From an uncultured Candidatus Bathyarchaeia archaeon (GTDB lineage: Archaea > Thermoproteota > CALKCG01 > B24 > JAWCPE01): DNA of 64,000 nucleotides. Below, piece after piece: positions 3,026 to 33,385 of this stretch (position 1 is its first letter; the number at the start of each line of letters is the position of its first letter). The stretch is taken from positions 1,007 to 65,006 of the forward strand of contig CAYNFI010000004.1 of assembly GCA_964396445.1 (NCBI GenBank). The letters run 5' to 3'. A program made the translations under genes and the position numbers. The notes below the pieces were generated by a model. The model was not told the origin of the DNA. It did not search any database and worked only from the letters and a program-made list of their open reading frames with translations.

Positions 3026-6000
3026 TCATCCACCGTGTTTCCTTACCGTCACGTATACTTTCGCTTCACCGGGACGTAGAGTAAGCTTCGCCGGCGTAGC
3101 GACCGCGTTCTCACAATCTGCTAGATAACGGCAACCTGGGACGTTAACGGACCTCGGTTCATCGCTGAGGTTTACTAAGCCTATAACCCTTCTTTCACCT
3201 ACATCATAACTGAGCGTGTAAATGAAGGGGTCTCCCTCAAGTCCGCAGAGCTCGCTGAAAACCGTTGAAAGCCCTCTCCTAAGCTCTGCGAGGTCCGTGA
3301 ACTCTGCGACCCACCTTTCTGAACTCCAAACAACTACCTTTTTCCCGCGGTTCAGCAGGACTTTCTCCCCAACCTTCTCGTATCCTTCCCCTACGAACTG
3401 CCCGTCTTTGAAGCACAGCCCAAGTGCCGCAAGCCAGTCCTCATCCACTCTTCTAAACTCCAGCGCTGCTCTATCCAGTAACAAGCCTTTGCCACGTTGC
3501 AGGAGAGATTTGAGTTCGTCGGCTGTTATCGCCAGGGATTCTGACCCAGCGATGCATACGACCGCTGATTCCTCGGGATATGGAGGAGCTGAGACTGTAG
3601 TCGGTATCCCGATTGCCATGGTCAGCGGGAAGGGGAAGAGTTCCCCGAACAGGCTGGTGTCCTTAGACCTGGATACACATACGCTACCAATAGGCGCTTT
3701 GGCTCTAGGTATCATTGAATGGAATAAACGAAGTCTCGCCTTATCCTGCGCTAAAGCGTCGAAGTAGTCGGGGATTGTATACAACTCCTCGGCTATTTGA
3801 ACCTCGTCGACGCCGCTGAGAACCGATATGTAAGCCTTCTTAACAAGATTATGTGGTGAAAGTGAATTGGTGAAATTGAACCCAGGGGTAATAGCCGATG
3901 TCTCACTATGGATGTGAAGATTCTTTCCCCTGCAGAAGCTTAGGTGAAATTGGATGGAAAGAGCCTCGTTGACCTGCTCCCAAGATGGTTCGAAATCCTT
4001 ATCCGCGAAGTGTTCCTCGCCTATCCTCACGCATCTAGGCTTGCCGAGCGCTTGAACCTGTGCATTCAGGTCTACGCCGTACCTGTCCTCGGCAAAGCGC
4101 ATCCACATAACACCTAGAGCCACGTTTTCACTGATTTGATCAAGCCCCTCCCTAATTTCTCGCAAAAGTGAGGTTAACTGGCTACACCTAAACTGATGCC
4201 AATCCTGGAGGAGACTACTCCCCCGGTCATTAGCTTCTACAACATCCCGAAGCGCATTTCTATCCACGGTGTAGCCGTACTCAGCTTTGAACTGTGATAT
4301 GCATCTGTCACAATAGCAGCCTTCAGCTTGTATGCCGCCGCGACTTCCAAGCCTGAAATCATCGTCTAGGAGAACTTTCCTGAAACCCATACCCGCCAGT
4401 TCCTTGATGACGAAGAGAATTTCCCTTCGCGTCTGCGGGTTACTTGGGCAGGCCATGTGTGGAATAGGCTCCCCATTGGCGTTAATGCGGTAGTTCCAAT
4501 GCTCAGGAAGCTCTACATTTGCAACCATCGGTGGAAAAATGGTGCCTGGATGGCCAAGGGGCATGACGTTAGCCCATGTCCTGATGCCTTTGTTCTCCAA
4601 TTCTTCCTTGATTCTCCTCAACTGCTCTGGTGTAGCGCTCCATCGACCCCAATACCAAGCTATCAACGCCAAATGAGTGATCCCCGCAGAACGGCATCTT
4701 TCCACTAATTCTTCTAAATATTGATGTGAAGTCAGTAGTCGTGGTTGGTACTCGTAGCGGCTAACCAACAGAGGTTCCTCAGTGACGGGCTGTCTAAGCC
4801 TCCTCGACCATTCCTTGGCGGTCGTTACAAGTTTGTTGCCTTCGTTGTCATAGTATTCCATACCTCCCGTTTCAGCATTTATTTCTCGCTGGGCAAAGTT
4901 GTTAAGATAGTAGAGCGTCGGCTCGGTTATGTGTAAATTGTTAAGCATCGGTTCAGTATACTTTATGTCCTCATATTGATTTCCACCGATGTGATGCTTA
5001 GCGCCTACGTGGTTATTCCAATCCACTCCCTCGGTTAGAAAACCATAGGGACCATGGTGATGCTTGGCTATGGCTCTCAGTACGGTGAGGGCTTTCAGCA
5101 GATATTCCCGCTTACCAGTGTCCTCATAAGCTTCAAGGTATGCCAGCGATACCTCAGCGTTCTCCCATAGATAGGCTGTGTCCCACGATTCCTCCATGTA
5201 CAAGAGGCCTTTCGTGGCAAGGCTGTTCCTGTCCTCGCATATTTCAAATTCCTCAAGGCCGGCTAATGAATTCTCGTAAGCAAACCTCGTTACCTTTTTA
5301 TCATCCAATACCTTTCCGGCGAGTCTTAAAGTGCGGAATGCCACCGCATACGATACGTTTTCACGTTTATCGAAGGTATCATGGTTTATACTGCCGTATA
5401 AACCCCCGTGCTCGATGAATGTTTTAACCCTTTCCCTGATAACAACCCTATAATCAGCTATCTTTCTTCGCGTTAATTCACACATCAACTGAACTGTGAA
5501 AAGACCGTCCCCGCTTTGGTCGAAGATTGGGTCGTTGCCCCCGTCTGGTTTTTTATCATATGACAAGCCCTCCGCCGTGCTTCTCCTAGGATACCAGCCG
5601 TTTGGGGCAAGCTTCACCTTGCCATCAATCCACATAGCCGTCTTAGCTGCAACTTCCCGCATTTTCCGCTTATTTGCTTCATCAGCCAATACGTCGCTGA
5701 ATATTAGGAGCTGGTAAGCCATCTTCGCCATAGAACCGGTGCAAATCCAATCGTTGTTTTTCGCGTAATTTAGGTAGTACTCGCCGGTGATAACATTACG
5801 ATATGGAGTGATGAATCCTGTTTCATAGTCGATGAATCCATCCTCTAGAACATGGTCGAGTATCAAGAGCGCCTTCTCAGACAATGTTAAGTCATCGATG
5901 AAGGAGGCGTAAAGATACAGCTCGTAAGCTCCGCCGATGGCATTAGCAGCCCAGCCTGGTCCCTCAAGGTCGCCGAAGCCATGCCAGCCTTGTCTATCAC

Positions 6001-21107: not shown

Positions 21108-22205
21108 CTAGGTCTTAGTAACCGCTCTCGGGTATGAACCTAAGACCTTCAGGAAGATGCATTTCGACGCTAAGTCTGTTAAGGCTTCCCGGCATTTTAC
21201 GTCGTCTTTATGACCTTCGAAATCGAGGTAGAACACGTACTGCCAAGGCTGCCCTCGCGTAGGTCTTGACTCAACCTTGGTAAGGTTGATGTCTCGGGTA
21301 GAGAAGGCCTCTAAGGCTTTGAATAGGGCGCCTGGGACGTCGCGGACGGCGAAGATAATCGATGTTTTATCCCGGCCTGTAGTTTGGCAGTCAGTGTGTC
21401 CGAGGATGAAGAACCTTGTGAAATTATTCGGTTGGTCTTCGATGCCCTTGGCGAGAACCTCCATACCGTAGATCTTAGCCGATGTCATCGCGCCGATAGC
21501 CGCAGCGTTCTCCAATTCCTTCAACATCTCAACCGCCCGAGCTGTACTCGCGACCTCCCTCCTCTCGGCTTTAGGTAACGTACGTTCCAGGTATTCCCTG
21601 CATTGGGCAAGGGCTTGGCTGTGGGAAACAACCAGGCGGATGTCCTGTAGGCGGGTTCCCGGTTTGGCGATGAGGTTGTGGTGGATTCGACGTTCAACCT
21701 CCCCGCAGACCATCAGCCTTGTCTCAAGGAGTAGCCCAAGGGCTACGGTGTAGGAGCCTTCTAAGGAGTTCTCCACGGGGACGACGCCGAAGTCAGCGTC
21801 GCTTACGTCTACAAGCCTAGAAACGTCGTGTACGCTGGGGCAGGGTGTGAAATCAGCTCCAGCTGATTCAAAGTAGCTTCTAGCAGCCTCCTCGCTGAAG
21901 GTGCCCACGGGGCCGAGGTAGGCAACCTTCACCCTCCCTTTCTGCCCACGTTCACACATAGCCATAACCTCCTCGTATACGGCTTCAACATCGTCGGGGT
22001 TAAGCCCAAGCCCGGAGGCACGCTTCCTGACGTGGGCTAAGACCTGCCTCTCCCTCTCCACATCCTTAACACTTAGCCCAGCAGTCTTCTTAAGCTCACC
22101 GAGCTGAAGGGCTAGGTTCAACCTCTTCCTGAGAAGTTGAACTAGTTCCTCGTCGACGCTGTCAACCTCTTTCCTCAACCCCTCGATTTCCTCAACCCTT
22201 GTCAT
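21108..22205 (-). CDS. pheA: bifunctional chorismate mutase / prephenate dehydratase
   Basis: N-terminal CM helices (LRKEVDSVDEELVQLLRKRLNLA), a PDT core (VAYLGPVGTFSEEA) and a C-terminal ACT domain (TSIIFAVRDVPGAL...TKVESRP). The ATG overlaps the aroC stop (ATGA). Confidence 0.85.
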   Translation of the reverse strand: MTRVEEIEGLRKEVDSVDEELVQLLRKRLNLALQLGELKKTAGLSVKDVERERQVLAHVRKRASGLGLNPDDVEAVYEEVMAMCERGQKGRVKVAYLGPVGTFSEEAARSYFESAGADFTPCPSVHDVSRLVDVSDADFGVVPVENSLEGSYTVALGLLLETRLMVCGEVERRIHHNLIAKPGTRLQDIRLVVSHSQALAQCREYLERTLPKAERREVASTARAVEMLKELENAAAIGAMTSAKIYGMEVLAKGIEDQPNNFTRFFILGHTDCQTTGRDKTSIIFAVRDVPGALFKALEAFSTRDINLTKVESRPTRGQPWQYVFYLDFEGHKDDVKCREALTDLASKCIFLKVLGSYPRAVTKT

Positions 22206-23299
22206 TTCAAAACCCTCGGTATGCAGCCGAGCCTTAAGGCATGGTCCGTTATAACGATGGCGGTGCAGGCTTCAACCACGGGAACAGCCCTAGGAACGAT
22301 GCAGGGGTCGTGTCTCCCAGAAGCCTTCAAATTAGTTTCCCTCATCGTCTGAATGTCAACCGTGATCTGCATCCTAGCTATGGAGGCTGGTGGCTTAAAG
22401 GCAACCCTAAGGGTTATGGGCATCCCGGTTGCAAGACCTCCGAGAATGCCCCCTGCGTTGTTCGTTAAGGCTGTAACCCTTCCATCGCGGACCACGTAAG
22501 GGTCGTTGTTCTCAGAGCCCTTCATGGAAGCCGCTTTAAAGCCTGCCCCAAACTCCACACCCTTCACACCGGGTATGTTGAAGATAGCCTTAGCCAGGTC
22601 TGCGTCGAGGGAATCGAAAACGGGTTCGCCTAGACCGACGGGCACATTTAACGCGTTGCATTCAACAACGCCTCCTAAGCTATCCCCTTCCTGAAAAGCC
22701 TTAAGCACCGCCTCCTCCATCAAAGCAGCGGCGGCTGGGTCCGCGCATCTCACAGAGTTCTTGTACACCTGTCCCCGAGTCTCTTCGTAGGAAACGGTTC
22801 TCGAAAGTTTCACCGACCCGATTTGAACCGTGTGGGCTAAGACCTCCACGCCCAGCTTTCCCAGCAGCTTCTTTGCCAAAGCCCCAGCGGCGACGAAGGC
22901 TACGGTGATGCGGCCTGAGAAGCGTCCTCCACCTCTGTAGTCGTTGAAGCCTCCATACCTCATGTAAGCCGTGTAATCGGCGTGTCCAGGTCGCGGCTTC
23001 ATCCTCAACTGTTCGTATGTGGTTGAATCCACATCCCTGTTCCATACGACCATGCATATCGGCGCCCCAGTTGTTAAACCCTTGAAAACACCAGAGGTGA
23101 TCTCCACCTTATCAGGTTCAAGCCTCGCTGACGTTACTTTAACCAAGCCAGGTCTCCGTTTATCGAGCTCATGTTGGATATCTACCTCTGAGAGGGGAAG
23201 CCCTGCTGGGCACCCGTCTACTATAACTCCCACTTGGCGCCCATGGCTTTCCCCAAAGCATGTGACAACAAAGCTCTTCCCAATGGAGTTACCTGACAG
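22202..23299 (-). CDS. aroC: chorismate synthase (start extended to in-frame CTG)
   Basis: The conserved N-terminus GNSIGKSFVVTCFGESHG lies upstream of the first GTG (23233), in frame. A stop lies 10 codons further up, with no ATG/GTG/TTG between. The only plausible initiator is CTG 23299..23297. Confidence 0.8.
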   Translation of the reverse strand: MSGNSIGKSFVVTCFGESHGRQVGVIVDGCPAGLPLSEVDIQHELDKRRPGLVKVTSARLEPDKVEITSGVFKGLTTGAPICMVVWNRDVDSTTYEQLRMKPRPGHADYTAYMRYGGFNDYRGGGRFSGRITVAFVAAGALAKKLLGKLGVEVLAHTVQIGSVKLSRTVSYEETRGQVYKNSVRCADPAAAALMEEAVLKAFQEGDSLGGVVECNALNVPVGLGEPVFDSLDADLAKAIFNIPGVKGVEFGAGFKAASMKGSENNDPYVVRDGRVTALTNNAGGILGGLATGMPITLRVAFKPPASIARMQITVDIQTMRETNLKASGRHDPCIVPRAVPVVEACTAIVITDHALRLGCIPRVLK

Positions 23300-24590
23300 A
23301 AACCATCGCCCCCAACGAACGCATATCCTTCACGAAGTTTGGATAAGACTTACTGATGCTTTCAACGCCGCGGATGGTTGTACAGCCCTCCGCCCCCAGC
23401 GCCGCTACGGCGCATGCCATGGCGACCCTGTGGTCGTTATGGGCTTCAAGGGAAGCCCCGTAGAGTTTCACTGGGCCCTCAACGACCAACAGGTCCTCAA
23501 AATCTAACACTTTAGCCCCCATCTTTCTCAACTCCGATGCGATAGTGTAAAGCCTATCAGATTCCTTAAACCTCAACCTTCCAGCCCCTTCGACAACCGT
23601 TTTCCCCCTCGCGTAGCATCCTAGAACGGCGTAAACTGGTGTAAGGTCCGGGGTCTGCTTCACATCTACTGTAAGCCCCTTTAAAGGCTGGTCGCATCCG
23701 AGGACCTCGACGTAATCTGGTCCAATCAAGAGTTTAACACCCATTGCTCCCAGGGATTCTAGGATAACCTTGTCCCCTTGACACGTATCCTTTGGAAGAC
23801 CTGTAACTTGAACCTTGGAGTTTGTAACCGCAGCCGCGGCTAGGAGAAAGGCAGCGGATGAGTAGTCGCCTGGTACAAGGTGGTTGAACCTCCTGTAAAC
23901 CTGCCCGTTTGGGATATGGAAGCTCCTGTAATCACCTGAAGCTCCAACCCTCACTCCGTGCTTACTGAGAACCTCAACGGTCATCTCCACGTAGGAGCTG
24001 GATTCAAGCTCCGTGGTCACATTGATTTCTGTGCTCTCACGTGCCTTAGGCAGTGCGAATAAAAGCCCTGAAATAAACTGTGAGCTTACGTCACCAACTA
24101 TAGTAGCCTTCCCGCCTTTAATGCCCCCGCCGAAAACAACGATGGGGGGGCAGCCGTTACCCCTTGTAGAATAACAGTTAACACCGAGCTTTCTAAGGGC
24201 TTCGAGGAGGGGTTCCATAGGTCTCCTGCGGAGAGACCCGTTCCCCGAGAGCACCGACATGCCGTCGGCTAAGGCGCATACAGGTGTCAGGAACCTTATG
24301 GTTGAACCTGACCCCCCGCAGTCAACCACGTCTTCGGGAGTTCGCGGGTTAGTTAATCCCTTTACGACGGCTGATTCCTCATCCAAAGTTATGGAAGCAC
24401 CCAGCATACGGCAGGCTTCAACCGTGGCCACCGTATCCTCGCATACAAGGGGATGCTGAACCACGCTTTCATCTCCAGAAAGTGAAGCGGCTATCAGCGC
24501 CCTATGCGTGTACGCCTTGGAAGGTGGGGCTTTAACCTTACCCTTTAAGGCTTCAGTTTTCTCCACGATGAGGCTGGGCATAGTGCACAC
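23289..24590 (-). CDS. aroA: 3-phosphoshikimate 1-carboxyvinyltransferase (EPSP synthase)
   Basis: KAPPSKAYTHRALIAASL, LRRRPMEPL and DHRVAMA motifs. The start is GTG 24590 or ATG 24581. Confidence 0.9.
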   Translation of the reverse strand: MCTMPSLIVEKTEALKGKVKAPPSKAYTHRALIAASLSGDESVVQHPLVCEDTVATVEACRMLGASITLDEESAVVKGLTNPRTPEDVVDCGGSGSTIRFLTPVCALADGMSVLSGNGSLRRRPMEPLLEALRKLGVNCYSTRGNGCPPIVVFGGGIKGGKATIVGDVSSQFISGLLFALPKARESTEINVTTELESSSYVEMTVEVLSKHGVRVGASGDYRSFHIPNGQVYRRFNHLVPGDYSSAAFLLAAAAVTNSKVQVTGLPKDTCQGDKVILESLGAMGVKLLIGPDYVEVLGCDQPLKGLTVDVKQTPDLTPVYAVLGCYARGKTVVEGAGRLRFKESDRLYTIASELRKMGAKVLDFEDLLVVEGPVKLYGASLEAHNDHRVAMACAVAALGAEGCTTIRGVESISKSYPNFVKDMRSLGAMVSVR

Positions 24591-25463
24591 CTAGGGGATA
24601 ACGTGGGCTTTCCCCGTTTTAATCCCAGCTTCAATAACCTCACCTTCATAACGCCGCCATACATCCTTAACCTTCTCAACGTTTTCCTCTAGCACGACAG
24701 CGGCTACGGCCGGTCCCTTCCCTGAAAGCCCCGCGGCTACAGCGCCCTGAGCCAGGGCGTCTACGGCTATGCCTGGGTTATACCCGAGCGTGGATGCGTA
24801 TATGAGCCCGTTCAGCTTCATCGCTGTCCAGTAGTTACCTGTAAGGGCTTCCCTGAAGGCCACATCTACTTCCCCAGCCATTAACCTCATCCGCTCAATA
24901 TCAGCCTTAACCGTGTAGGCTTTACCTTGGGGCACAAGGATCAGGACCCTGAACCCTTCCTCCACCTTAAAGTGTTTCAGAACCTTCCTCGCCATGTTAT
25001 CCGTTACGACGATGTTTCCTAGGTATGAGGCGCAAGCGTCGTCGAAGGCTCCCGTCACCGTAACCTTAGCTTCTAGAGCCACGTCAACCGCCATGTTAAT
25101 GACGTCTAAATCCTCTAGGCTTCCGCCGACGGCTGATAAGGCGGCGAGGACGAGGGCGTTCGCGGCTACGCTGCTGCTCTTCAACCCCCTAGCTATGGGG
25201 ATGTTAGAGCGCGTCTCCACATAGGCTCCATGGCTTCCCTCTAAGCCGAAGCGTTTCAACACCCTTTTAACTATCTTCTCTATGAGGCTTGTGTCTTCAC
25301 CTGGGTCTGACAGGATCTTTCCCCGGATGATTCCAGGTTCATCTGTTAACTTTACCGCAGCCTCGGTCCAGAGGTCGATGCCCAGCGCAGCACCCTTTCC
25401 ACCCGCGAGGGCGTTAACCACGGTAACAGCGCCGTAAGCCACTGCTTTCCCAACCCGACCCAT
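24591..25463 (-). CDS. aroK: archaeal GHMP-family shikimate kinase
   Basis: GHMP-like PIARGLKSSSVAANA motif and the N-terminus typical of archaeal shikimate kinases. Positioned between aroE and aroA. Confidence 0.8.
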   Translation of the reverse strand: MGRVGKAVAYGAVTVVNALAGGKGAALGIDLWTEAAVKLTDEPGIIRGKILSDPGEDTSLIEKIVKRVLKRFGLEGSHGAYVETRSNIPIARGLKSSSVAANALVLAALSAVGGSLEDLDVINMAVDVALEAKVTVTGAFDDACASYLGNIVVTDNMARKVLKHFKVEEGFRVLILVPQGKAYTVKADIERMRLMAGEVDVAFREALTGNYWTAMKLNGLIYASTLGYNPGIAVDALAQGAVAAGLSGKGPAVAAVVLEENVEKVKDVWRRYEGEVIEAGIKTGKAHVIP

Positions 25464-25480
25464 TCCACCTCATCCTTCCT

Positions 25481-26338
25481 TTAGATACTTGGTCTAACCT
25501 CTTCCGCAGCTTTCATCATCGCATCAACGGGTGCCTTAACACCTGTCCAGATCTCGAAGGAGGCAGCGGCTTGGTATACGAGCATCTGTATACCATCGAT
25601 GGTTTTAGCCCCTACGTTCCGCGCTTCCATCAGTAGCCTTGTTTTCACAGGGTTATAGACAAGCTCGAACACGGTGAGAGACCTTCTAAGAAGGTCTGCG
25701 TCTACGGGGATCTCCGCTCCCAGTGGATTCATGCCAACCGGGGTTGCGTTGATGAGGATGTCGGCGTCAGCTAACTCCCTTTCAACGTTTTCCCTTTCAA
25801 GACCCCCGCTTGATAACACTCCCTCCGCGTTCATCGCAGCCTCCTCAGCTAGGGCTCTGGCTTTTTCAACCGTTCTATTGAGTATGACGGTGTAGCAGGG
25901 GGTCTGCGCTAGTCTGTGAGCGATAGCCCTCGATGTGCCTCCCGCCCCTAGCATGACGACTTTACTATCCTCCAGTGTTTGACCGTTCTCCCTTAGAGCA
26001 TTTAACGCGCCTACACCATCTGTGTTATAACCGATAAGCCTTCCATCAGCGTTCACCACCGTGTTGACGGCGCCGATTCTCCGCGTGGTTTCCTCCAATT
26101 CATCGAGGTATTGTATGATATCGGTTTTATGGGGCATGGTCACGTTTAAGCCCCTGAGCGCAAGCGCACGCGCACCCTTTACGGCGTCTCTGAGCCCTTC
26201 GCGTTTAACGGTTAACGCTACATAGACATAGTTGAGGCTGAGGACTTTGAAAGCGGCGTTGAGAATGTAAGGGCTTAGCGAGTGCTTAACAGGGTCACCT
26301 ATGACCGCGTAGACCCCTGTATCCCCTGAAACCTTCAG
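25481..26338 (-). CDS. aroE: shikimate dehydrogenase (start extended to in-frame CTG)
   Basis: The substrate-binding N-terminus VYAVIGDPVKHSLSP...NVTMPHK is in frame upstream of the called GTG (26143). There is no ATG/GTG/TTG back to the stop. CTG 26338..26336 overlaps the aroD TGA (CTGA). Also has the GAGGTSRAIA NADP motif. Confidence 0.8.
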   Translation of the reverse strand: MKVSGDTGVYAVIGDPVKHSLSPYILNAAFKVLSLNYVYVALTVKREGLRDAVKGARALALRGLNVTMPHKTDIIQYLDELEETTRRIGAVNTVVNADGRLIGYNTDGVGALNALRENGQTLEDSKVVMLGAGGTSRAIAHRLAQTPCYTVILNRTVEKARALAEEAAMNAEGVLSSGGLERENVERELADADILINATPVGMNPLGAEIPVDADLLRRSLTVFELVYNPVKTRLLMEARNVGAKTIDGIQMLVYQAAASFEIWTGVKAPVDAMMKAAEEVRPSI

Positions 26339-27021
26339 GTTTCAACCCCCAGTTTCTCATAGATGCTCATCAAGTCACCTATCCATAGTTGACCCCGCGC
26401 CGTCTCAAATCCCTTCTTAACACTGGCGTAGGTGAAGTAGGCTCCGAGTAGCGGCGAAGCAACCCTTGAAAGAATCCCCGCGGAGCCCATGGCGAAGCAC
26501 ACGATCTTGCACTTTTGCCCCGCCTCACCTGTTAGGGTTAGGCAGGTAAGGTTATCCTTCGCCTCCCGCGCTGTGGTTACGACTTTGCAGACATAGGCTC
26601 CCGCCTCAATTTCCCGCCTCAAGAGGCCTCTGATGTCAGTTAGACTCGGGGTACTCTGGAAATTATGATGAGATACTATAGGTTTAACCCCTTGGGCCTT
26701 CAACTCATGTACTGTTCCACTTAGCCCTTCGGATGTTAGTTCAGCGTCCGCGTACTCGAAACCTGTTCCTGCAACTTTAACGAGCCGTTTCAAGCGTTCT
26801 CCTTCGCTTCCAGCCCACAGTCCACCCTGTGATGCTTGCCTATTCGTGGCGATGAGGGGTAGCTTCGTGGAAGCCGCTAGGTCCTCGACGCCGTTTAATC
26901 CCTTTAGGTAATCGATTCTAAGTTCTGCTAAAGCAGCTCCATAGGCTTCAGCCTTCTCGAGAAGTTTAAGGGCTTCGGCTATGCTCCGTGCGGGGATCGG
27001 TGTACATATCCTAGCCTTCAC
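26335..27021 (-). CDS. aroD: 3-dehydroquinate dehydratase, type I
   Basis: ELRIDYL, IVSHHNFQSTP and CKVVTTA (Schiff-base Lys region). The GTG start overlaps the upstream stop (GTGA). Confidence 0.85.
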   Translation of the reverse strand: MKARICTPIPARSIAEALKLLEKAEAYGAALAELRIDYLKGLNGVEDLAASTKLPLIATNRQASQGGLWAGSEGERLKRLVKVAGTGFEYADAELTSEGLSGTVHELKAQGVKPIVSHHNFQSTPSLTDIRGLLRREIEAGAYVCKVVTTAREAKDNLTCLTLTGEAGQKCKIVCFAMGSAGILSRVASPLLGAYFTYASVKKGFETARGQLWIGDLMSIYEKLGVET

Positions 27022-28115
27022 CTCTCGATCACCGTCTCTTCCTTTACTAGTGTTCCGAAGTGCCTCCCACCCTCCTCAACGTGGGCTAGGATCTCGTCGC
27101 CGGGTTTAAGCTCGGTAACGGATTTTGAGCCTTCCCGTGTTACAAAACGGATTGTCTCAGCGTTTTGAACGATCACCTTGCCAACTCTTTCTTGGCATAG
27201 GGCTTCGACTAGGATTAGGGGGCGCCACTCAACCTTCACCCTGCAAACGTTCGCCGCTCTCGACATTCCCTCTCGGTCAACTATGAGTACATCCTTTCCG
27301 GCGCCTAGCTCTGATAGATACCTTGTCTTCCCACCCGGTGTGAGGGTGTAATGCGACACGGGTCCGGCGTTAACCCTGAAGGGTCTAGGCTCCACATGCG
27401 GGTTTTCATAAACCTCGGCTTGGACGAGGAAGAGGCTGGATGACTGGCAGCCTACGAGCATGCCTTCGCCTTGCTTCATGAGGTCGCATGTGTCAACGCA
27501 TACCCGTGCGCCGATGCCTAGGGGCGTCGATGCTATAACCTCCGCTGGTGTGATAGTCATCCTTTCAGCCGTCTTTTTCTCCTCAACCCTCGTTTTAACC
27601 GTCTTTAACACCTCGTTAACCTGCTGAAGCCCCTTCGACGTCGGGTTCTCAACGACTACGCCGTCAACGCCGATTTCTAGGGCTTCAAGTGTAAGCCGTG
27701 CTTTTCCAGCGTCTGGGATGAGTGCTAGGAGCCTGCTTTTTCCGTGAACGGAGGCGATGATGTTTTCAATGGGGATCACTTCCCAGTTTGGGCATCTTAG
27801 GATGATGTAGTCAGCCCCTGCTTCAGCTGCCCTAGCGACTGACGCTTCGTCATCCCGGGACTTCACGGTTACAGTTATGCACGTTGCGCCTCCTGTCTTC
27901 TTCGCTTCCTTGGCTTCCTTCAGGTCTTCGACGATCGTGATGTCCGCGTCCCTCGCTGAAGCTGTTTTAAAACCTAGACCTTTAACCGCAGTTACGTCAA
28001 CGGGGTCAAGTATGCATGCTTGGCACAGCTTAGATGCGGCTTCGATAAGCCTGCCCTTTTCCTCCACGTTCAGTGAGGGGTTGATCCTAGCCCAAAGTTC
28101 CCTCACAGGCTTCAC
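27018..28115 (-). CDS. 3-dehydroquinate synthase II (archaeal type)
   Basis: Family-typical [20 protein letters not shown]-like segment ([21 protein letters not shown]). Located between the ADH synthase gene and aroD. Confidence 0.8.
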
Positions 28116-28918
28116 CCAACCTTTTCACCGCTAACAAGCTTGTACGCTTCTTCCACAGTCATTCCTCGATGGACAACTCCGGCGATTGCTTTACCCATAC
28201 CAGTCGGAGTCTCGTGTTGGAATACGTTTCTCCCGATACTGACTCCGGCGCCTCCAGCACGCATGGAGTTGTAAACCATCTCTAGGATCTCCCCGTCTGT
28301 TTCAGCCTTAGGTCCTCCGGCGATGATGACGGGGACAGGGCATCCCCTCACCACTTCACGGAAGGAATCGATGCTTCCCGTGTAGTTTGTTTTTATGATG
28401 TCAGCTCCAAGCTCTACTCCAAGCCTTGCGGCGTGAGCTACGGCTTCAAAGTCATGCTCGCTCTTGATCCCTGGTCCCCTCGGGTACATCATAGCCAGTA
28501 AAGGCATGCCCCAAGCGTCACATTCGTCAGCCACATCACCTAGCTTTGTGAGCATGTCATGCTCCTTATCCGCACCTACGTTGATGTGAACTGAGACCGC
28601 GTCTGCGCCGAGCATGAGGGCTTCCTCAACCGAGGCAACTCTTACCTTCCAGTTTGCGTTGGGTCCGAGCTTAGTGCTGGCTGAGATGTGAACGATTAAT
28701 CCCAGCCCCCGTGTGTCCACGTTCTTAGCGATGCCTTTATGGAGGACAACGGCGTCCACATCGCCCTCTACGAGCTTGTCGACGATGCTCTGCATGTCCA
28801 CTAGGCCCTTCACAGGTCCTAGGCTTACACCGTGGTCCATCGGGGTTACCACGGTTTTTCCATCGACTCGGAAGATCCTTCCCATTCTCCTCCTTTTTCC
28901 TACATCCATTTGTCTCAC
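28112..28918 (-). CDS. 2-amino-3,7-dideoxy-D-threo-hept-6-ulosonate (ADH) synthase, DhnA-type class I aldolase
   Basis: DhnA aldolase-like sequence ([23 protein letters not shown] lysine region). Operon context with DHQ synthase II. Confidence 0.75.
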
Positions 28919-28921
28919 CTC

Positions 28922-29998
28922 CTAAACGTAACCTGCTTTAACGAGGAATTCCGCCACAAGGGTGGCGCCTTTAGCCGCTCCCATCTTGGTGTTATGGGAT
29001 ACTAGAACGTACTTCACACCGTTTTCCAAGGCGTTGTCCTCCCTGATCCTTCCTACGACCGTTGCCATCCCCCCGTAGGTATCCCTGTCAAGCCTCGGCT
29101 GAGGTCTGAAGGGGTCGTCGTGGACAACGATCAACTCCTTCGGAGCCGATGGTAGGTTAAGCTCCCGGAGGACGCCGGCGAAGTTCCTCATAGCCGCCGC
29201 CACCTCCTCTACGCTGCAGCGTTTCCGCGTTGAGGCGAACACGGTTTCCGTGTGGCCTTCCCTTACATTCACCCTTGTGCAGGTGCAGCTTACCTTGAAA
29301 CCCGCTGGTTTAATGGTTATATCTTCGTAGCTTCCGAGGATCTTCAGGGTTTCGGTTTGCACCTTCTCCTCCTCCATGGCGATGTAGGGGATGATGTTGT
29401 CTACGATGTCGAGGGCGAGAACCCCCGGTGAGCGACCGGCGCCTGAAACCGCCTGCATAGACGTCATAACGACTTTCTCCAACCCGAAGCTGTCATGGAT
29501 GGGTTTAAGCGAAACCACCAGCCCCGTCGTCGTACAGTTTGGTATAGGTGTGATGAACCCATTCCAACCCCTATTCTTCCTTTGAACGTTAATAATCGAC
29601 GCGTGTTCAAGGTTTACACCTGGGACTAGGACTGGGACGTCGTTTTCATACCTGAAGGCTGAGGCTGTGCTTATGACAGGTCTGCTCCTAGCCATAAGGG
29701 GTTCAAGCTCCTTAGCCTGCTCCGACTCGATAGCTGAGAAGATGATATCCACGTCTGAGAACTTGACCTCAGCCGCGTCTTCCACGGTCATCTCAAGTGA
29801 TGACGCTGGCGGCGCCTCCTCGCAGAACCATCGTAGGGCTCCGGTTTTCTCGTCTTTCAGGGCTTCCAGGTACGTTTTCCCAGCTGACCGCTTTGATGCA
29901 GCTAGGGCTGCCACCTCAAACCATGGATGCCGATCTAGGGCTACCATGAACTGTTGTCCCACAACCCCTGTAGCTCCGATAACCAGCGTTTTCAACAT
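28922..29998 (-). CDS. asd: aspartate-semialdehyde dehydrogenase
   Basis: VIGATGVVGQ NAD(P) fold, active-site IPNCTTTG, and QAVSGAG. Confidence 0.85.
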   Translation of the reverse strand: MLKTLVIGATGVVGQQFMVALDRHPWFEVAALAASKRSAGKTYLEALKDEKTGALRWFCEEAPPASSLEMTVEDAAEVKFSDVDIIFSAIESEQAKELEPLMARSRPVISTASAFRYENDVPVLVPGVNLEHASIINVQRKNRGWNGFITPIPNCTTTGLVVSLKPIHDSFGLEKVVMTSMQAVSGAGRSPGVLALDIVDNIIPYIAMEEEKVQTETLKILGSYEDITIKPAGFKVSCTCTRVNVREGHTETVFASTRKRCSVEEVAAAMRNFAGVLRELNLPSAPKELIVVHDDPFRPQPRLDRDTYGGMATVVGRIREDNALENGVKYVLVSHNTKMGAAKGATLVAEFLVKAGYV

Positions 29999-30004
29999 CG
30001 TGTT

Positions 30005-31252
30005 TCACCTCTTACCTTCCCTTAACGCCTCCTGTACAAGCTTTATAACTCTCTCCCTCTCAACCCAGTCCACGAAAACAAGGATGCTTGAAGTGATGGT
30101 TAGGATTCCGGCGATGTTGATGGCGTTTTCATGCAGGGGCCCTGCGATACTACCGATGACACCTGGGGTTTCCTCTAAACCAACACCTCTAACCTTGATG
30201 AAGGCAAGGTTCCTCCTCGCGGCGAGGGCTAAGGTTTCGCTGTGATGCTCGAGGACTACGGTGTGGAGGGCTTCAAGTAGCCTTGACGCGTTCTCTTCTG
30301 GGAGGTAGAGTATGAGGGAATCAGCGTTCGTCGACATTCCCAGGTTTGAGGCTCCCACCTTCCTAACTTCCTCTACAACGCGGCTTAGAACCTTCGGCGA
30401 GTCTGCTAGGGCTTTGCCCACGATGGTGACGGCTACAACGGGTCGCTCGTAGGCTACGTCTACGGCAAGCTCCTTTGGGAGACCGCCGTGGATGATGGTT
30501 CCCTCAGAGTCAAGCCTTCCAGCGTTGTAGTCGATAACCTTCACGTCTATGGATGGGTCCTTGTACTTCAAAGCCTTTTTATGGATAAACTTAACATCGG
30601 AATCAGCGAGGCCGGCTAAGGCTTCAACCCCTATCTCCCTGAGCACCCTTGGCTTACTCACCACCTTTGGGTCGGCGGTCATGATGCCCTCAACGCTTGT
30701 CACGAGGACGATCTGGTCGGCTTTAAGCGCCTTACCTAGGATGAACGCTGTGGTATCGCTTCCACCCCTGCCAAGAGTGGTTATGCTCCCATCCTTTGTC
30801 TTACCTATGAACCCAGGGATCACGGGGACCACGCCTCGCTCCATGACAGGTTGAACGTGTCTCTGAACGAGTTCCTCGCATAGTGGAACCGCGGGTTTGG
30901 CGTTGTTGAACGCTTCATCGGTGATTATCGGCCACTCATCGTCGGCTGGGTCGAAGTATCGGGTTTCAACACCGCATTCCCTTAAACCGGCTGTGAATAC
31001 CCGCGCGCTCGTCCTTTCACCCATGGACAGGATGTCGTCGAGTTCTTTCACGGATACATCGCTGCCACATGCCTGCTTAGCCGTTTCGATGAGGTTGTCC
31101 GTTGTTTTACCTATGGCTGAGACAACCACCGCAACCTTCGTGCCATTCTTAACCTCATCGGATACGGCCTTAATGGCTTTCAGTATCCTAGCTCCATCGC
31201 CTAAACTGGCGCCACCAAATTTCACAACGAGACAACGATTCTTCTCCTTCAC
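30005..31252 (-). CDS. lysC: aspartate kinase with C-terminal ACT domains
   Basis: VVKFGGASL, TLGRGGSDTTA, and two ACT-like repeats. GTG start. Confidence 0.85.
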   Translation of the reverse strand: MKEKNRCLVVKFGGASLGDGARILKAIKAVSDEVKNGTKVAVVVSAIGKTTDNLIETAKQACGSDVSVKELDDILSMGERTSARVFTAGLRECGVETRYFDPADDEWPIITDEAFNNAKPAVPLCEELVQRHVQPVMERGVVPVIPGFIGKTKDGSITTLGRGGSDTTAFILGKALKADQIVLVTSVEGIMTADPKVVSKPRVLREIGVEALAGLADSDVKFIHKKALKYKDPSIDVKVIDYNAGRLDSEGTIIHGGLPKELAVDVAYERPVVAVTIVGKALADSPKVLSRVVEEVRKVGASNLGMSTNADSLILYLPEENASRLLEALHTVVLEHHSETLALAARRNLAFIKVRGVGLEETPGVIGSIAGPLHENAINIAGILTITSSILVFVDWVERERVIKLVQEALREGKR

Positions 31253-31307
31253 CTTAAACCACCCCGAAGAGGACCGGAACCTTGAAGCCTAAGCGCTTAA
31301 CCAGCTC

Positions 31308-31323
31308 GGTCCCCTTAGGGACC
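31308..31323 (-). promoter_or_regulatory. hairpin GGUCCC-UAAG-GGGACC enclosing the leader-ORF stop codon
   Basis: Perfect 6-bp stem. The UAA stop of the 14-codon ORF lies in the tetraloop. A second GGUCC (31275..31271) could pair alternatively with GGGACC. Confidence 0.45.
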
Positions 31324-31359
31324 GAAATAATAGAAGTAGAAGTAGCCGAACATACGCAT
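31315..31359 (-). CDS. candidate leader peptide MRMFGYFYFYYFGP upstream of the aromatic amino-acid operon
   Basis: ATG CGT ATG TTC GGC TAC TTC TAC TTC TAT TAT TTC GGT CCC TAA. Eight of 14 codons are Phe/Tyr. It ends 62 nt upstream of the aspartate kinase GTG. Confidence 0.4.
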   Translation of the reverse strand: MRMFGYFYFYYFGP

Positions 31360-31473
31360 CGTTCTTTGACGTGTTAAGCTTCGGCTCATGGACAGGTCCT
31401 CTGGCTGCCTCAATAGTAGCTCGGCTACACCTTATAAGCTTTATGCGGGTTATGGCATTATTGGGCTAACAGT

Positions 31474-31485
31474 TTTTATTAATAG
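31474..31485 (+). promoter_or_regulatory. TATA-like box for the AOR gene
   Basis: TTTTTATTAATA lies 25-35 nt upstream of ATG 31508/31517, consistent with a leaderless or short-leader transcript. Confidence 0.4.
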
Positions 31486-31516
31486 ACCTTATGTCTTATC
31501 CGGTGTGATGCGGTCT

Positions 31517-33385
31517 ATGCTCCGGGGATATGTAGGTAAGCTTTTACGCGTTGAACTAACAAGCGATGAGTTCAGGGTTGAGCAGCTTCAGGAGGATTTA
31601 GCGCGGAATTACCTTGGAGGTAGCGGGATAGCAGCTCGGATCCTGTACGATAATCTGGACCCTATGGTTGAGCCATTAAGCCCTGAAAACATACTCGTCT
31701 TTATGACAGGTCCTTTAACAGGTACTATAGCGCCTTCCTGTGGACGGTACACGGTTTGCACAAAGTCCCCGCTGACTGGGATATGGGCTGAGTCTCACTC
31801 AGCTGGTTTCTGGGGTCCTGAGCTGAAGTTCGCAGGCTTCGACGGCGTTGTATTCAATGGAAGAGCGGAGGGCCCTGTCTATCTCTGGGTTCACGATGGG
31901 GAAGCTGAGCTTCGGTCTGCGAAGCATCTCTGGGGCTTAGATACTTATGAAACTGAGCTGGCGTTGAGGAAGGAGCTAAACGATGAAAGGGTAAAGGTTA
32001 CCTGCATCGGACCCGCAGGGGAGAGACTAGTACGGGTCGCATCAGTTCTCAACGATATGGGACGTGCGGCGGGGAGGTGTGGCACAGGCGCCGTCATGGG
32101 TTCGAAGCATTTGAAAGCCATCGCAGTTAGAGGGACCAAGGTTAACATCATCGAGGCGGCTGAGGAGGTTATGCTTAGAAGCTTCTTGAAGAAGATCTAT
32201 GTGACGATCCGCTCCCACCCCACGGTTCAAACCTTCGCCTCCTATGGCACAGATGGGCTTATGGAGATGATGCATGAGTACGGGGACGTACCGGTCAAGT
32301 ATTTCCAACGTGGGGAGTGGGCTGACGGTATACCGAGGATCAGCGGGGAAGCCATGGCGAAGACTATTCTAAAACGGTCTTACGCCTGCTTCAGATGCCC
32401 AATCGCCTGCGGAAGAATCGTGGCTGTGAAGGAGGGCCCATACGCTACAGGTGAGGGTATGGGCCCAGAGTATGAAACCTGCGCCTCCCTAGGCGCTTTA
32501 TGCCTCAACGACAGCATCGAAGCCATTGCTAAGGCTAATGAACTCTGCAACCGCTACGGGGTCGACACCATATCCACGGGCAACCTCATCGCCTTCACCA
32601 TGGAATGTTATGAAAAGAACCTTCTGACGAAGGAAGACCTAGACGGCGTTGACCTAACCTGGGGGAACGAAAAAGCGGTTATGGGGATGATCACACGGAT
32701 CGCTATGCGGGAAGGCTTCGGAAACGTTTTAGCCGAGGGTGTGCGGAGGGCTTCTCAGCGGGTCGGTAAGGGTTCAGAGGGCTTCGCTATGCATGTGAAG
32801 GGCTTAGAAGTTCCTATGCACGACCCGAGAGCCTTCAAGGGGCTTGGGCTTCAATACGCCACCTCTCATAGGGGTGCATGCCACCTCCGCGGCGAAGTCT
32901 TCTTCATCGAGCAGGGGGAGCGTATCCCAGACCTAGGCATCCATGAAAGGGTTTACAGGTTCACAACCGAGGGGAAGCCTTGGATCGTTATGACGATGCA
33001 GAACTGGCACGATGTTCTCGACGCCCTCATCCTCTGCAAGTTCACGTATCTCCCACCGGCTTCCGTAGCCGCTGTCTACTCTATGGTTACAGGCTGGAAG
33101 ACTTACCACCTAGAGCTTTTGAAGTCTGGGGAGAGGGTGTACAACCTGAAACGTGTGTTCAGCCTCAGATGCGGGGTTACAGGGCGGGAAGACACGTTGC
33201 CTCGTAGGCTGCTTCAAGAACCCTTGGCTGAAGGAGGGTCTAAAGGGGAGGTTGTTGAACTCGGTAAGATGCTACCTGAATACTACAGGCTTAGAGGGTG
33301 GAGTGAGGAAGGCATCCCAACGGTTGAGAAACTTAAGGAACTTAACCTCCACGACGTAGTCATGGATGTTCAGAGGCTAGGCTGA
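31517..33385 (+). CDS. aor: tungsten-containing aldehyde:ferredoxin oxidoreductase family protein
   Basis: The N-terminus MLRGYVGKLLRVELTS is typical of AORs. Also has GPEYET and the CFRCPIACGR cluster ligands. The ORF-track start 31388 is judged too far upstream. Confidence 0.85.
   Translation: MLRGYVGKLLRVELTSDEFRVEQLQEDLARNYLGGSGIAARILYDNLDPMVEPLSPENILVFMTGPLTGTIAPSCGRYTVCTKSPLTGIWAESHSAGFWGPELKFAGFDGVVFNGRAEGPVYLWVHDGEAELRSAKHLWGLDTYETELALRKELNDERVKVTCIGPAGERLVRVASVLNDMGRAAGRCGTGAVMGSKHLKAIAVRGTKVNIIEAAEEVMLRSFLKKIYVTIRSHPTVQTFASYGTDGLMEMMHEYGDVPVKYFQRGEWADGIPRISGEAMAKTILKRSYACFRCPIACGRIVAVKEGPYATGEGMGPEYETCASLGALCLNDSIEAIAKANELCNRYGVDTISTGNLIAFTMECYEKNLLTKEDLDGVDLTWGNEKAVMGMITRIAMREGFGNVLAEGVRRASQRVGKGSEGFAMHVKGLEVPMHDPRAFKGLGLQYATSHRGACHLRGEVFFIEQGERIPDLGIHERVYRFTTEGKPWIVMTMQNWHDVLDALILCKFTYLPPASVAAVYSMVTGWKTYHLELLKSGERVYNLKRVFSLRCGVTGREDTLPRRLLQEPLAEGGSKGEVVELGKMLPEYYRLRGWSEEGIPTVEKLKELNLHDVVMDVQRLG

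Follow-up and report, generated by a model that had tools for sequence, protein, structure and literature searches.

A Phe/Tyr-rich leader reading frame as a candidate leader-peptide attenuator of an aromatic amino-acid operon in Bathyarchaeia

A short open reading frame (sORF) crowded with Phe and Tyr codons lies on the minus strand directly upstream of aspartate kinase (AK), the first gene of a ten-gene aromatic amino-acid operon, in a 64,000-nt stretch of DNA from an uncultured Candidatus Bathyarchaeia archaeon (contig CAYNFI010000004.1; this whole stretch is referred to below as the window). On the evidence of sequence comparison, it is a deeply conserved, translated-looking Phe/Tyr leader, accompanied by two conserved RNA helices (hairpin P1 and helix P0), in front of an archaeal aromatic operon. 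The element very probably functions as a leader that senses Phe and Tyr, and it is probably the first leader-peptide attenuator in Archaea, namely an upstream open reading frame (uORF) through which the supply of aromatic amino acids would set the expression of AK-asd-aro-pheA across the Bathyarchaeia. In bacteria, ribosome-mediated attenuation is textbook knowledge; it is not known from any archaeal amino-acid operon. The papers and preprints searched yielded no archaeal leader-peptide attenuator as a precedent, and in them archaeal ribosome-profiling (Ribo-seq) studies call sORFs of 5' untranslated regions merely 'reminiscent' of leader peptides. Both points accord with the initial annotation of the window, which had proposed a leader-peptide-type uORF for this operon and had known of no established control of this kind in Archaea; the proposal is strongly supported by the conservation of both the sORF and P1 across about 80 species-level Bathyarchaeia genomes.

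The leader reading frame in the window and among relatives

The minus strand at 31359..31315 reads ATG CGT ATG TTC GGC TAC TTC TAC TTC TAT TAT TTC GGT CCC TAA and translates to MRMFGYFYFYYFGP, exactly as first annotated, with Phe and Tyr occupying eight of the 14 codons (four each). The stop codon TAA (31317..31315) is separated by 62 nt from the GTG start of AK (31252..31250), and the distance given earlier therefore agrees with the coordinates. The frame is exceptional within its own surroundings: the six frames contain 3002 stop-terminated ORF segments across the window, and it alone carries at least six aromatic residues in its last 12, with eight against five in the runner-up. The 14-codon frame is nested inside a longer one, and the start first placed at 31359 has to be revised. 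With GAGGA in front of it (31401..31397), an ATG in the same frame at 31389 opens a 24-codon ORF (MSRSLTRQRTMRMFGYFYFYYFGP) that is most likely the genuine reading frame, judging by its length and layout, which are those of the homologues. The leader sORF, 24 codons plus TAA, would accordingly extend over 31315..31389 on the minus strand, in keeping with homologues of 22-29 codons that have an ATG and a Shine-Dalgarno (SD) motif. Its presumed sensing codons form the aromatic run TTC GGC TAC TTC TAC TTC TAT TAT TTC (F G Y F Y F Y Y F) at 31324..31350, and the SD-like GAGGA (31397..31401, minus strand) is located 8-12 nt 5' of the ATG, at the same place as the SD-like motifs of relatives. Farther upstream, a putative promoter with a TFB-recognition element (BRE) and a TATA-like box, ATAAAGCTTATAAG, occupies 31431..31444 on the minus strand. 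The TTATAA pointed out in the initial annotation belongs to this element and is kept in position and sequence among relatives, although its coordinates are 31437..31432 and not 31440..31433. The leader transcript would then start near 31412..31405, about 20 nt 5' of ATG 31389.

Conservation was assessed by an alignment-based scan with one genome per species, which covered 80 Bathyarchaeia loci, 79 of them with upstream DNA (related loci are cited below by their L numbers). A Phe/Tyr-rich sORF tail is found on the AK strand in all 79, ending 47-83 nt before the AK start (median 62), with tails such as ...SFDYYFYYYFP, ...WQFYSFGYFFYR and ...RFFTYFSGYYTTF. At least seven aromatics in the last 12 residues occur in 67 of the 80 leader tails, but in these loci only 12 of 27,471 background ORF tails have as many, and none has eight or more. 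One locus inspected by eye, L027, reads MTIQCSKRLVSVIRNTYFFSCNATYTTF and continues into a hairpin and a U6 run. Loci L081-L090 were added by three closer relatives (AK 61-64% identical) together with a pattern scan of metagenomes, and include tails such as MVDGCRFKATGAFQAYFFYYGP and MMIPSEGSKKTAFGFFYGYGYGYSFSFYFYFGP; all five matches of the 22-nt pattern used in that scan are AK leaders, one of them identical to that of the window.

The element also appears to be confined to this position. A covariance model run over 727 kb recovers one copy per locus, each time upstream of AK, and no further copies outside AK leaders. Likewise, no other composition-biased leader sORF with a hairpin was found besides the AK leader in the 64-kb window and 640 kb of related loci.

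Several individual loci deserve mention in their own right. L090 (Ga0129298_10011464), a 4-kb metagenome contig of the Joint Genome Institute (JGI), is identical to the window at 300 of 300 positions of the leader region, and for this reason is taken to derive from the window's organism. In L087 (Ga0080004_1118853), the leader is enlarged to 33 codons with Gly-Tyr repeats (…FGFFYGYGYGYSFSFYFYFGP). L024 (JBLNCY010000053.1) is labelled 'Methanocella sp.' and L023 (JAISPR010000087.1) 'Nitrososphaerota archaeon'; both carry a typical leader of the Bathyarchaeia main group and an AK 54% identical to that of the window, which suggests mis-binning or outdated taxonomy behind these labels.

The way in which the leaders vary points to selection on a translated frame. 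Across the last 12 codons of 78 leaders, Tyr accounts for 34% and Phe for 28% of residues (62% together) and Trp for 1%, and the three codon positions differ sharply, with T in 64% of first positions, A or T in 74% of second positions and C or T in 92% of third positions. Variation in the tail is therefore exchange of Phe for Tyr plus synonymous change, in phase with the sORF. In a 39-sequence alignment, the gap runs within the sORF are all of 3, 6 or 9 nt (seven distinct events), while gaps in the 25 nt 5' of it measure 1-4 nt. The ATG is kept and gives frames of 22-29 codons, with an SD-like motif (GAGG, AGGA or AGGT) 8-16 nt upstream in relatives; the mean duplex energy with the anti-SD sequence at this motif is -3.8 kcal/mol, against -2.0 kcal/mol at background positions. 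The N-terminal half of the sORF is variable, and the tail keeps its composition and not its peptide sequence.

A separate promoter can also be recognized. In most of 71 relatives a TATA-like box stands 41-48 nt 5' of the sORF ATG, and the main group has CCGAAACGCTTATATTTT as its BRE/TATA sequence. The corresponding sequence is AAAGCTTATAAG for the window and L001 (for which AAAGCTTATAAGC is also given) and GGCTTATTAAAA for L081-L085. An early caveat held that the aromatic tract might be nothing more than a TATA/BRE-like promoter element. That reading was considered and is ruled out by the codon-phased variation and the indels in multiples of three; together with the kept ATG, SD and stop and with a distinct BRE/TATA some 45-50 nt 5' of the ATG, these features argue that the tract is not a mere promoter box.

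Helices of the leader RNA

The second conserved component is a hairpin that abuts the stop codon of the sORF. In the window, this hairpin P1 (AAGGGGACCGAGCU ... GGUU.CCGGUCCUCUU) is predicted at 31267..31316 on the minus strand, with a folding energy of -24.3 kcal/mol and a z-score of -3.7. Its 3' arm includes the 'second GGUCC' (31275..31271) to which attention had been drawn earlier; both this motif and the C(TTCG)G that follows it at 31269..31264 lie where they had been placed. Across 78 loci including the window, the minimum-free-energy (MFE) prediction folds the spacer between stop and AK into a hairpin that opens with a pair at an offset of -3 to +6 nt relative to the stop codon, in most cases 0 to -3. 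The medians are 0 for this offset, 14.5 bp for length, -19 kcal/mol for energy and -3.3 for the z-score. In these 78 loci the hairpin ends about 17-22 nt 5' of the AK start and leaves the SD just outside, and a G-rich AK SD follows 3-10 nt 3' of P1 in all relatives. In the window this SD is GGGGUGG (31259..31265, minus strand), 6 nt 5' of the GTG.

The arms of P1 are wholly different among lineages yet complementary to each other, as in GCCCAGAACU/AGUUCUGGGC, GGGGAAAGGGC/GCUCUUUCCUC and GCUUCAAAACCU/AGGUUUUGAAGC, compared with AAGGGGACCG/CGGUCCUCUU in the window. RNAalifold, applied to a 74-sequence alignment, recovered the outer eight pairs of P1, with compensatory changes in eight of eight. 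These outer pairs are paired in 93% of cells, compared with 25-57% in slid controls, and the alignment holds 43 double-change cells against 9.1 in shuffles, none of 500 shuffles reaching as high a value. G-U pairs greatly outnumber A-C combinations in P1, which indicates that the constraint acts on the RNA of this strand.

Helix P0 joins the beginning of the sORF to its own aromatic run. In the MFE fold of the window leader, its 5' strand AGCCGAA (31380..31386, minus strand), just 3' of the sORF ATG, pairs with UUCGGCU (31344..31350, minus strand), the first aromatic codons F-G-Y. The main-group version has 7 bp, UCGAAGC:GCUUCGR, and 15 of 16 variant cells are wobble-compatible (for example, L052:3829-3835 with 3888-3894); in the L019 group, UAUGAAUAGCCA pairs with UGGCAGUUCUAUA. 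The main-group pairing would also account for the invariable encoding of S-F-D/G as AGC UUC GRC. By closing over the start region of the sORF, P0 may limit its translation to the first, co-transcriptional ribosome.

The initial annotation had singled out a smaller hairpin with the stop codon in its loop. This alternative structure (UCGGUCCC-UAAG-GGGACCGA, 31306..31325, minus strand), built around GGTCCC (31323..31318), TAAG and GGGACC (31313..31308), does fold well, with 8 bp, -15.2 kcal/mol and a z-score of -3.6. Its conservation is limited to the clade of the window: GGU CCC UAA GGGGACC is nucleotide-identical in L001, L081-L085 and L087 and missing from other lineages, and P1 is the element shared by the family. 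No Rfam 15 family matched at gathering score in the window and 10 loci, and an E-value threshold gave no match either, the only hit in the region being a chance-level snoRNA (E = 0.19).

Unmasking of the ribosome-binding site and competing explanations

As the best explanation of these features, we propose that the operon leader is a cis-acting, ribosome-read mechanism that unmasks the ribosome-binding site (RBS) of AK, a proposal whose chances we regard as evenly balanced. Transcription would begin at the BRE/TATA element (31444..31431), about 20 nt 5' of ATG 31389, and a ribosome would then read the 24-codon sORF. The last half of this frame consists almost entirely of Phe and Tyr codons, so the speed of the ribosome would report the supply of charged tRNA-Phe and tRNA-Tyr. 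Its position would in turn set the fold of the leader RNA around P1, which extends from the stop to a few nucleotides 5' of the AK SD and would clamp the sORF tail close to the AK RBS. When the run is free of ribosomes, GGU CCC and the Phe/Tyr codons are predicted to pair with the SD/start region of AK beneath P1, and AK would be translated weakly. With a ribosome at the stop codon, P1 would be melted and its freed pyrimidine-rich 3' arm could pair with the same region, again giving weak translation. A ribosome stalled on the Phe/Tyr run, by contrast, would cover the masking strand and leave P1 intact, so that the AK RBS is exposed and the operon is on. P0, formed by the sORF start region and the first aromatic codons, would block further translation of the sORF once the run has been cleared. 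Translation of the sORF, stalling on it and an effect on AK are steps that we infer.

The proposal was examined with a thermodynamic model in which a 28-nt ribosome footprint was moved codon by codon and the energy cost of opening the SD-to-start region of AK was read out. For the window, the predicted opening energy is 13.6 kcal/mol with no ribosome and falls to 1.1-3.4 kcal/mol when the A-site is in the Phe/Tyr run, at codons -10 to -7 and -4 to -1 (1.1 at codon -4); it rebounds to 9.4 and 7.3 kcal/mol at codons -6 and -5 and is 8.1 kcal/mol with the ribosome at the stop. The mean over 78 loci changes in the same direction, from 6.0 kcal/mol with no ribosome to 4.5 at codon -4 and 5.7 at the stop; for codon -4, the difference has p = 1e-8 against the ribosome-free state and p = 1e-6 against the stop, values computed over phylogenetically non-independent loci. 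In the ribosome-free MFE fold of the window, GGGGU of the AK SD pairs with GUCCC of the last two sORF codons beneath P1, and a further pairing joins AK codons 2-4 to CUUCUACUU in the aromatic run.

Several observations weigh against this proposal. The evidence base is computational throughout, drawn from metagenome-assembled genomes and from statistics across related sequences. The mean effect is modest at about 1.5 kcal/mol, and a dip of at least 2 kcal/mol is predicted in only 18 of 78 loci; among members of the window clade, the window itself and L001 show the profile clearly and L085 shows it in part, but L081 and L083 do not. Real tails pair with the SD with a probability of 0.66, compared with 0.69 after codon shuffling and 0.55 when the tail is random, and the predicted masking of the SD thus appears largely generic, architectural and compositional in nature. 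Co-evolution of tail and SD was not found, with duplexes of -5.2 kcal/mol for a leader's own partners against -5.7 kcal/mol for cross-lineage pairs. In the window, the 3:4 mini-hairpin is not significant (z -0.6). RBS unmasking also leaves unexplained a conserved A5-6/U5-8 motif in the P1 loop of 41 relatives. Weighed together, RBS unmasking as the output of the leader is held tentatively, with a chance a little below even.

Bacterial-type switching between alternative helices was also considered. Helices of the 1:2 and 2:3 kind are predicted for the window clade. Over the family, the 1:2 helix of the classical scheme, in which the sORF pairs with the 5' arm, has a median z-score of about 0 and reaches z < -2 in four of 77 loci, being present only in the window, L001, L003 and L031. 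The sequestration of the SD by a freed 3' arm (3:4 pairing) is, in most lineages, not better than with shuffled arms, and a conserved terminator/antiterminator alternative pairing was not found across loci.

The most substantial competing explanation starts from the loop motif. A run of at least five T between stop and AK is found in 46 of 78 leaders, compared with 12% of random 62-nt windows and 1% of windows in AK coding sequence. In 41 leaders, this U-run belongs to the P1 loop, where its position is near-constant (+19 to +25 relative to the stop codon) even among subfamilies whose stems are unrelated, and the loop U5-8 tract usually comes directly after an A5-6 run (e.g. L052:3943-3949 and 40 other loci). 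A Phe/Tyr leader could accordingly act through transcription attenuation, its output being termination or pausing at the oligo-U tract, either intrinsic or dependent on aCPSF1 (FttA), with read-through decided by the distance between ribosome and RNA polymerase or by the folding of P1. The archaeal factor aCPSF1 binds U-tract RNA and sets termination efficiency (PMC8716108). A U5-6 run after the hairpin is found in seven of 78 relatives, and in L006, L008, L014 and L030, where it follows directly, the arrangement resembles a bacterial terminator. P0, too, would suit such a scheme: as in classical attenuators, only the first, co-transcriptional ribosome would get to read the sORF. By analogy with the geometry of bacterial expressomes, RNA polymerase positioned on the loop tract would be touched by a ribosome with its A-site at one of the last one or two sense codons.

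Against attenuation stands the lack of a U5 tract in the window, its clade and altogether 32 of 78 leaders. The window has no T5 tract between stop and AK, and no terminator-like site was found in 31150..31650 by a sigma-70 and terminator scan, the sigma-70 part of which is uninformative for an archaeon; the earlier statement that no oligo-T terminator follows the hairpin therefore holds. Moreover, the loop tract is transcribed before the 3' arm of P1, so P1 could not control termination there, and no terminator/antiterminator alternative is conserved. The known form of coupling, in which a close ribosome suppresses termination, would also give the wrong sign for a biosynthetic operon. Transcription attenuation is regarded as unlikely, roughly a one-in-several prospect. 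Nevertheless, the generic masking, the small mean effect and the unexplained U-tract make a U-tract/aCPSF1 layer a serious rival or addition to RBS unmasking in lineages that have the tract; for the window, which has neither a U-tract nor a terminator-like site, this transcriptional layer is less serious.

Control of mRNA stability is a less probable alternative, and we consider it improbable. Here a stalled ribosome together with P1 would act as a 5' stabilizer against 5'-to-3' exonucleases (aRNase J, aCPSF2), and the mRNA would live longer under starvation. Stalled ribosomes are known to stabilize mRNA, as for ermC in Bacillus, and the leader is suitably placed at the far 5' end of a ten-gene mRNA with a stable hairpin just downstream. 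P1 by itself, however, should stop an exonuclease with or without a stalled ribosome, no sequence feature specifically indicates decay, and the conserved spacing between P1 and the SD would be left unexplained.

Positive coupling, in which P1 (with the U-tract in some lineages) forms a terminator or roadblock melted only by a ribosome that finishes the sORF, is very improbable. The hairpin begins at the stop, so that a ribosome on the last four codons or the stop has to open P1, and several lineages do show a hairpin followed by U5-6; most lineages, the window included, have no U run after the hairpin, and the arrangement would cut aromatic biosynthesis just as Phe and Tyr run short, a physiologically implausible outcome. 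The absence of any translated sensor, with the tract serving as a promoter element, an SD-masking RNA of the fourU-thermometer type or a functional aromatic micropeptide, is the least credible reading of all: an AT- and pyrimidine-rich tract that pairs with the SD regardless of codon order would suit it, but it is contradicted by the codon-phased variation, by indels in multiples of three within the ORF, by an ATG, SD and stop at fixed places and by the separate BRE/TATA upstream, and a functional peptide is further disfavoured because composition alone is conserved in the tail and the N-terminal half varies.

Operon setting, significance and relation to known leader systems

The operon downstream of the putative leader begins with AK (30005..31252, minus strand), which has Pfam AA_kinase and ACT domains. 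It continues over 21108..29998 on the same strand with asd, ADH synthase (DeoC family), DHQ synthase II, aroD, aroE, a GHMP-type shikimate kinase, EPSP synthase, chorismate synthase and chorismate mutase/prephenate dehydratase. Pfam matches confirm all ten genes and the order described earlier, with AK first and chorismate mutase/prephenate dehydratase last. Neighbouring genes overlap or are separated by at most 17 nt, except for 55 nt before the listed start of chorismate synthase. The best non-self match of AK is 64% identical, and the named matches all come from Bathyarchaeia/Bathyarchaeota. In the non-classical archaeal route, aspartate semialdehyde (ASA), made by AK and asd, is a precursor of dehydroquinate (PMC4162585); with AK and asd supplying this precursor, the entire operon would serve aromatic synthesis, specifically its Phe branch. 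No other amino-acid operons were found in the 64-kb window.

Some gene starts in this region appear to need correction. A divergent ORF for aldehyde:ferredoxin oxidoreductase (AOR) is listed at 31388..33385 on the plus strand, and the N-terminus typical of the family (MRSMLRGYVGKLLRVELT) begins at ATG 31508; orthologues in L083-L085 have 624-649 aa and start 235-250 nt from AK. The true AOR start is almost certainly 31508, which makes the intergenic region about 255 nt long, not 135 nt, and gives space for two divergent promoters. A strong TATA-like sequence, TTTTTATTAATA, is present at 31474..31485 on the plus strand and would make the AOR mRNA nearly leaderless. In aroE (26334..25481, minus strand), the frame is intact directly after the aroD stop (…NLKVSGDTGVYAVIGDPVKHSLSP…) and contains no ATG, GTG or TTG before GTG 26143, where a start would remove the N-terminal domain; the gene may use a non-canonical start such as CTG at about 26331 or be coupled to aroD, or the sequence may contain an error. 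At 23233..23289 (minus strand), the start of chorismate synthase is also in question: for this ORF, listed from GTG 23233, the Pfam profile is matched only from its position 14, and together with the 55-nt gap to EPSP synthase this suggests that the real start may lie upstream, at an unlisted start codon.

If the leader works as proposed, sensing of translation speed evolved, or persisted, beyond Bacteria; the roughly 80 species that carry the leader belong to an abundant, uncultured class of Archaea. The loop U-tract would then sit where a ribosome finishing the run meets RNA polymerase, and the leader would open a window onto the interplay of the archaeal ribosome, RNA polymerase and U-tract/aCPSF1 termination. 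As a compact cis-element consisting of an 80-nt sORF and a 50-nt hairpin, it could be used to study archaeal transcription-translation coupling and U-tract termination, and it could serve as a marker for annotating regulated aromatic biosynthesis in metagenome-assembled genomes of Bathyarchaeia.

The closest formal counterparts are the leaders of Proteobacteria, such as pheL-pheA, trpL, hisL, thrL and leuL, in which a short leader ORF rich in codons for the end product also precedes a biosynthetic operon. As in the pheL/trpL type, the stop is sited so that a terminating ribosome would disrupt the main leader hairpin, a helix includes the start region of the leader itself, and the ORF lies downstream of a promoter with its own start signals (BRE/TATA, SD and ATG conserved; the transcription start placed by prediction). 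Unlike that type, the element has an archaeal host and matches no Rfam leader family, mixes Phe and Tyr codons, and precedes an operon whose first genes, AK and asd, supply the DKFP/ASA route by which archaea make dehydroquinate. No terminator/antiterminator pair was found to be conserved, and the window is without a GC hairpin and U-run terminator. The Bathyarchaeia leader thus fails the defining structural tests of a classical transcription attenuator.

A second comparison is provided by the poly-Cys leaderless sORFs of mycobacteria, for which experiments indicate that a ribosome stalled in the tract blocks a duplex sequestering the downstream RBS (bioRxiv 10.1101/834739). Both systems have an amino-acid-rich sORF before biosynthetic genes, and the same RBS logic is suggested here by folding predictions. 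The mycobacterial sORFs are leaderless and belong to another domain of life, whereas the sORF described here has an SD-led start; a conserved stop-abutting clamp hairpin stands between tract and RBS in Bathyarchaeia, and the predicted masking is weak and generic, with no defined duplex. The ermC/cat attenuators are similar in that a ribosome stalled in the leader remodels neighbouring hairpins and frees the next SD, which for Bathyarchaeia is a model. They differ in that stalling depends on a drug and a specific nascent peptide and not on a shortage of charged tRNA, and in that their SD lies inside the hairpin, while here it is just outside P1.

Archaeal U-tract/aCPSF1 (FttA) terminators (PMC8716108, PMC7515710) share with these leaders the sense-strand U5-8 tract seen in 46 of 78; U-tracts are the termination signal to which archaeal RNA polymerase and aCPSF1 respond. 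Those terminators are known at the 3' ends of genes and not as regulated 5' leader elements, the window has no such tract, and no link of the terminators to leader translation has been described. By analogy, the Bathyarchaeia leader appears to resemble the translational attenuators, ermC and the mycobacterial Cys sORFs, even more than pheL/trpL. Its architecture, which combines P0 and the aromatic run with a hairpin abutting the stop and, in many leaders, a U-tract in the loop, would be distinct from that of bacterial attenuators.

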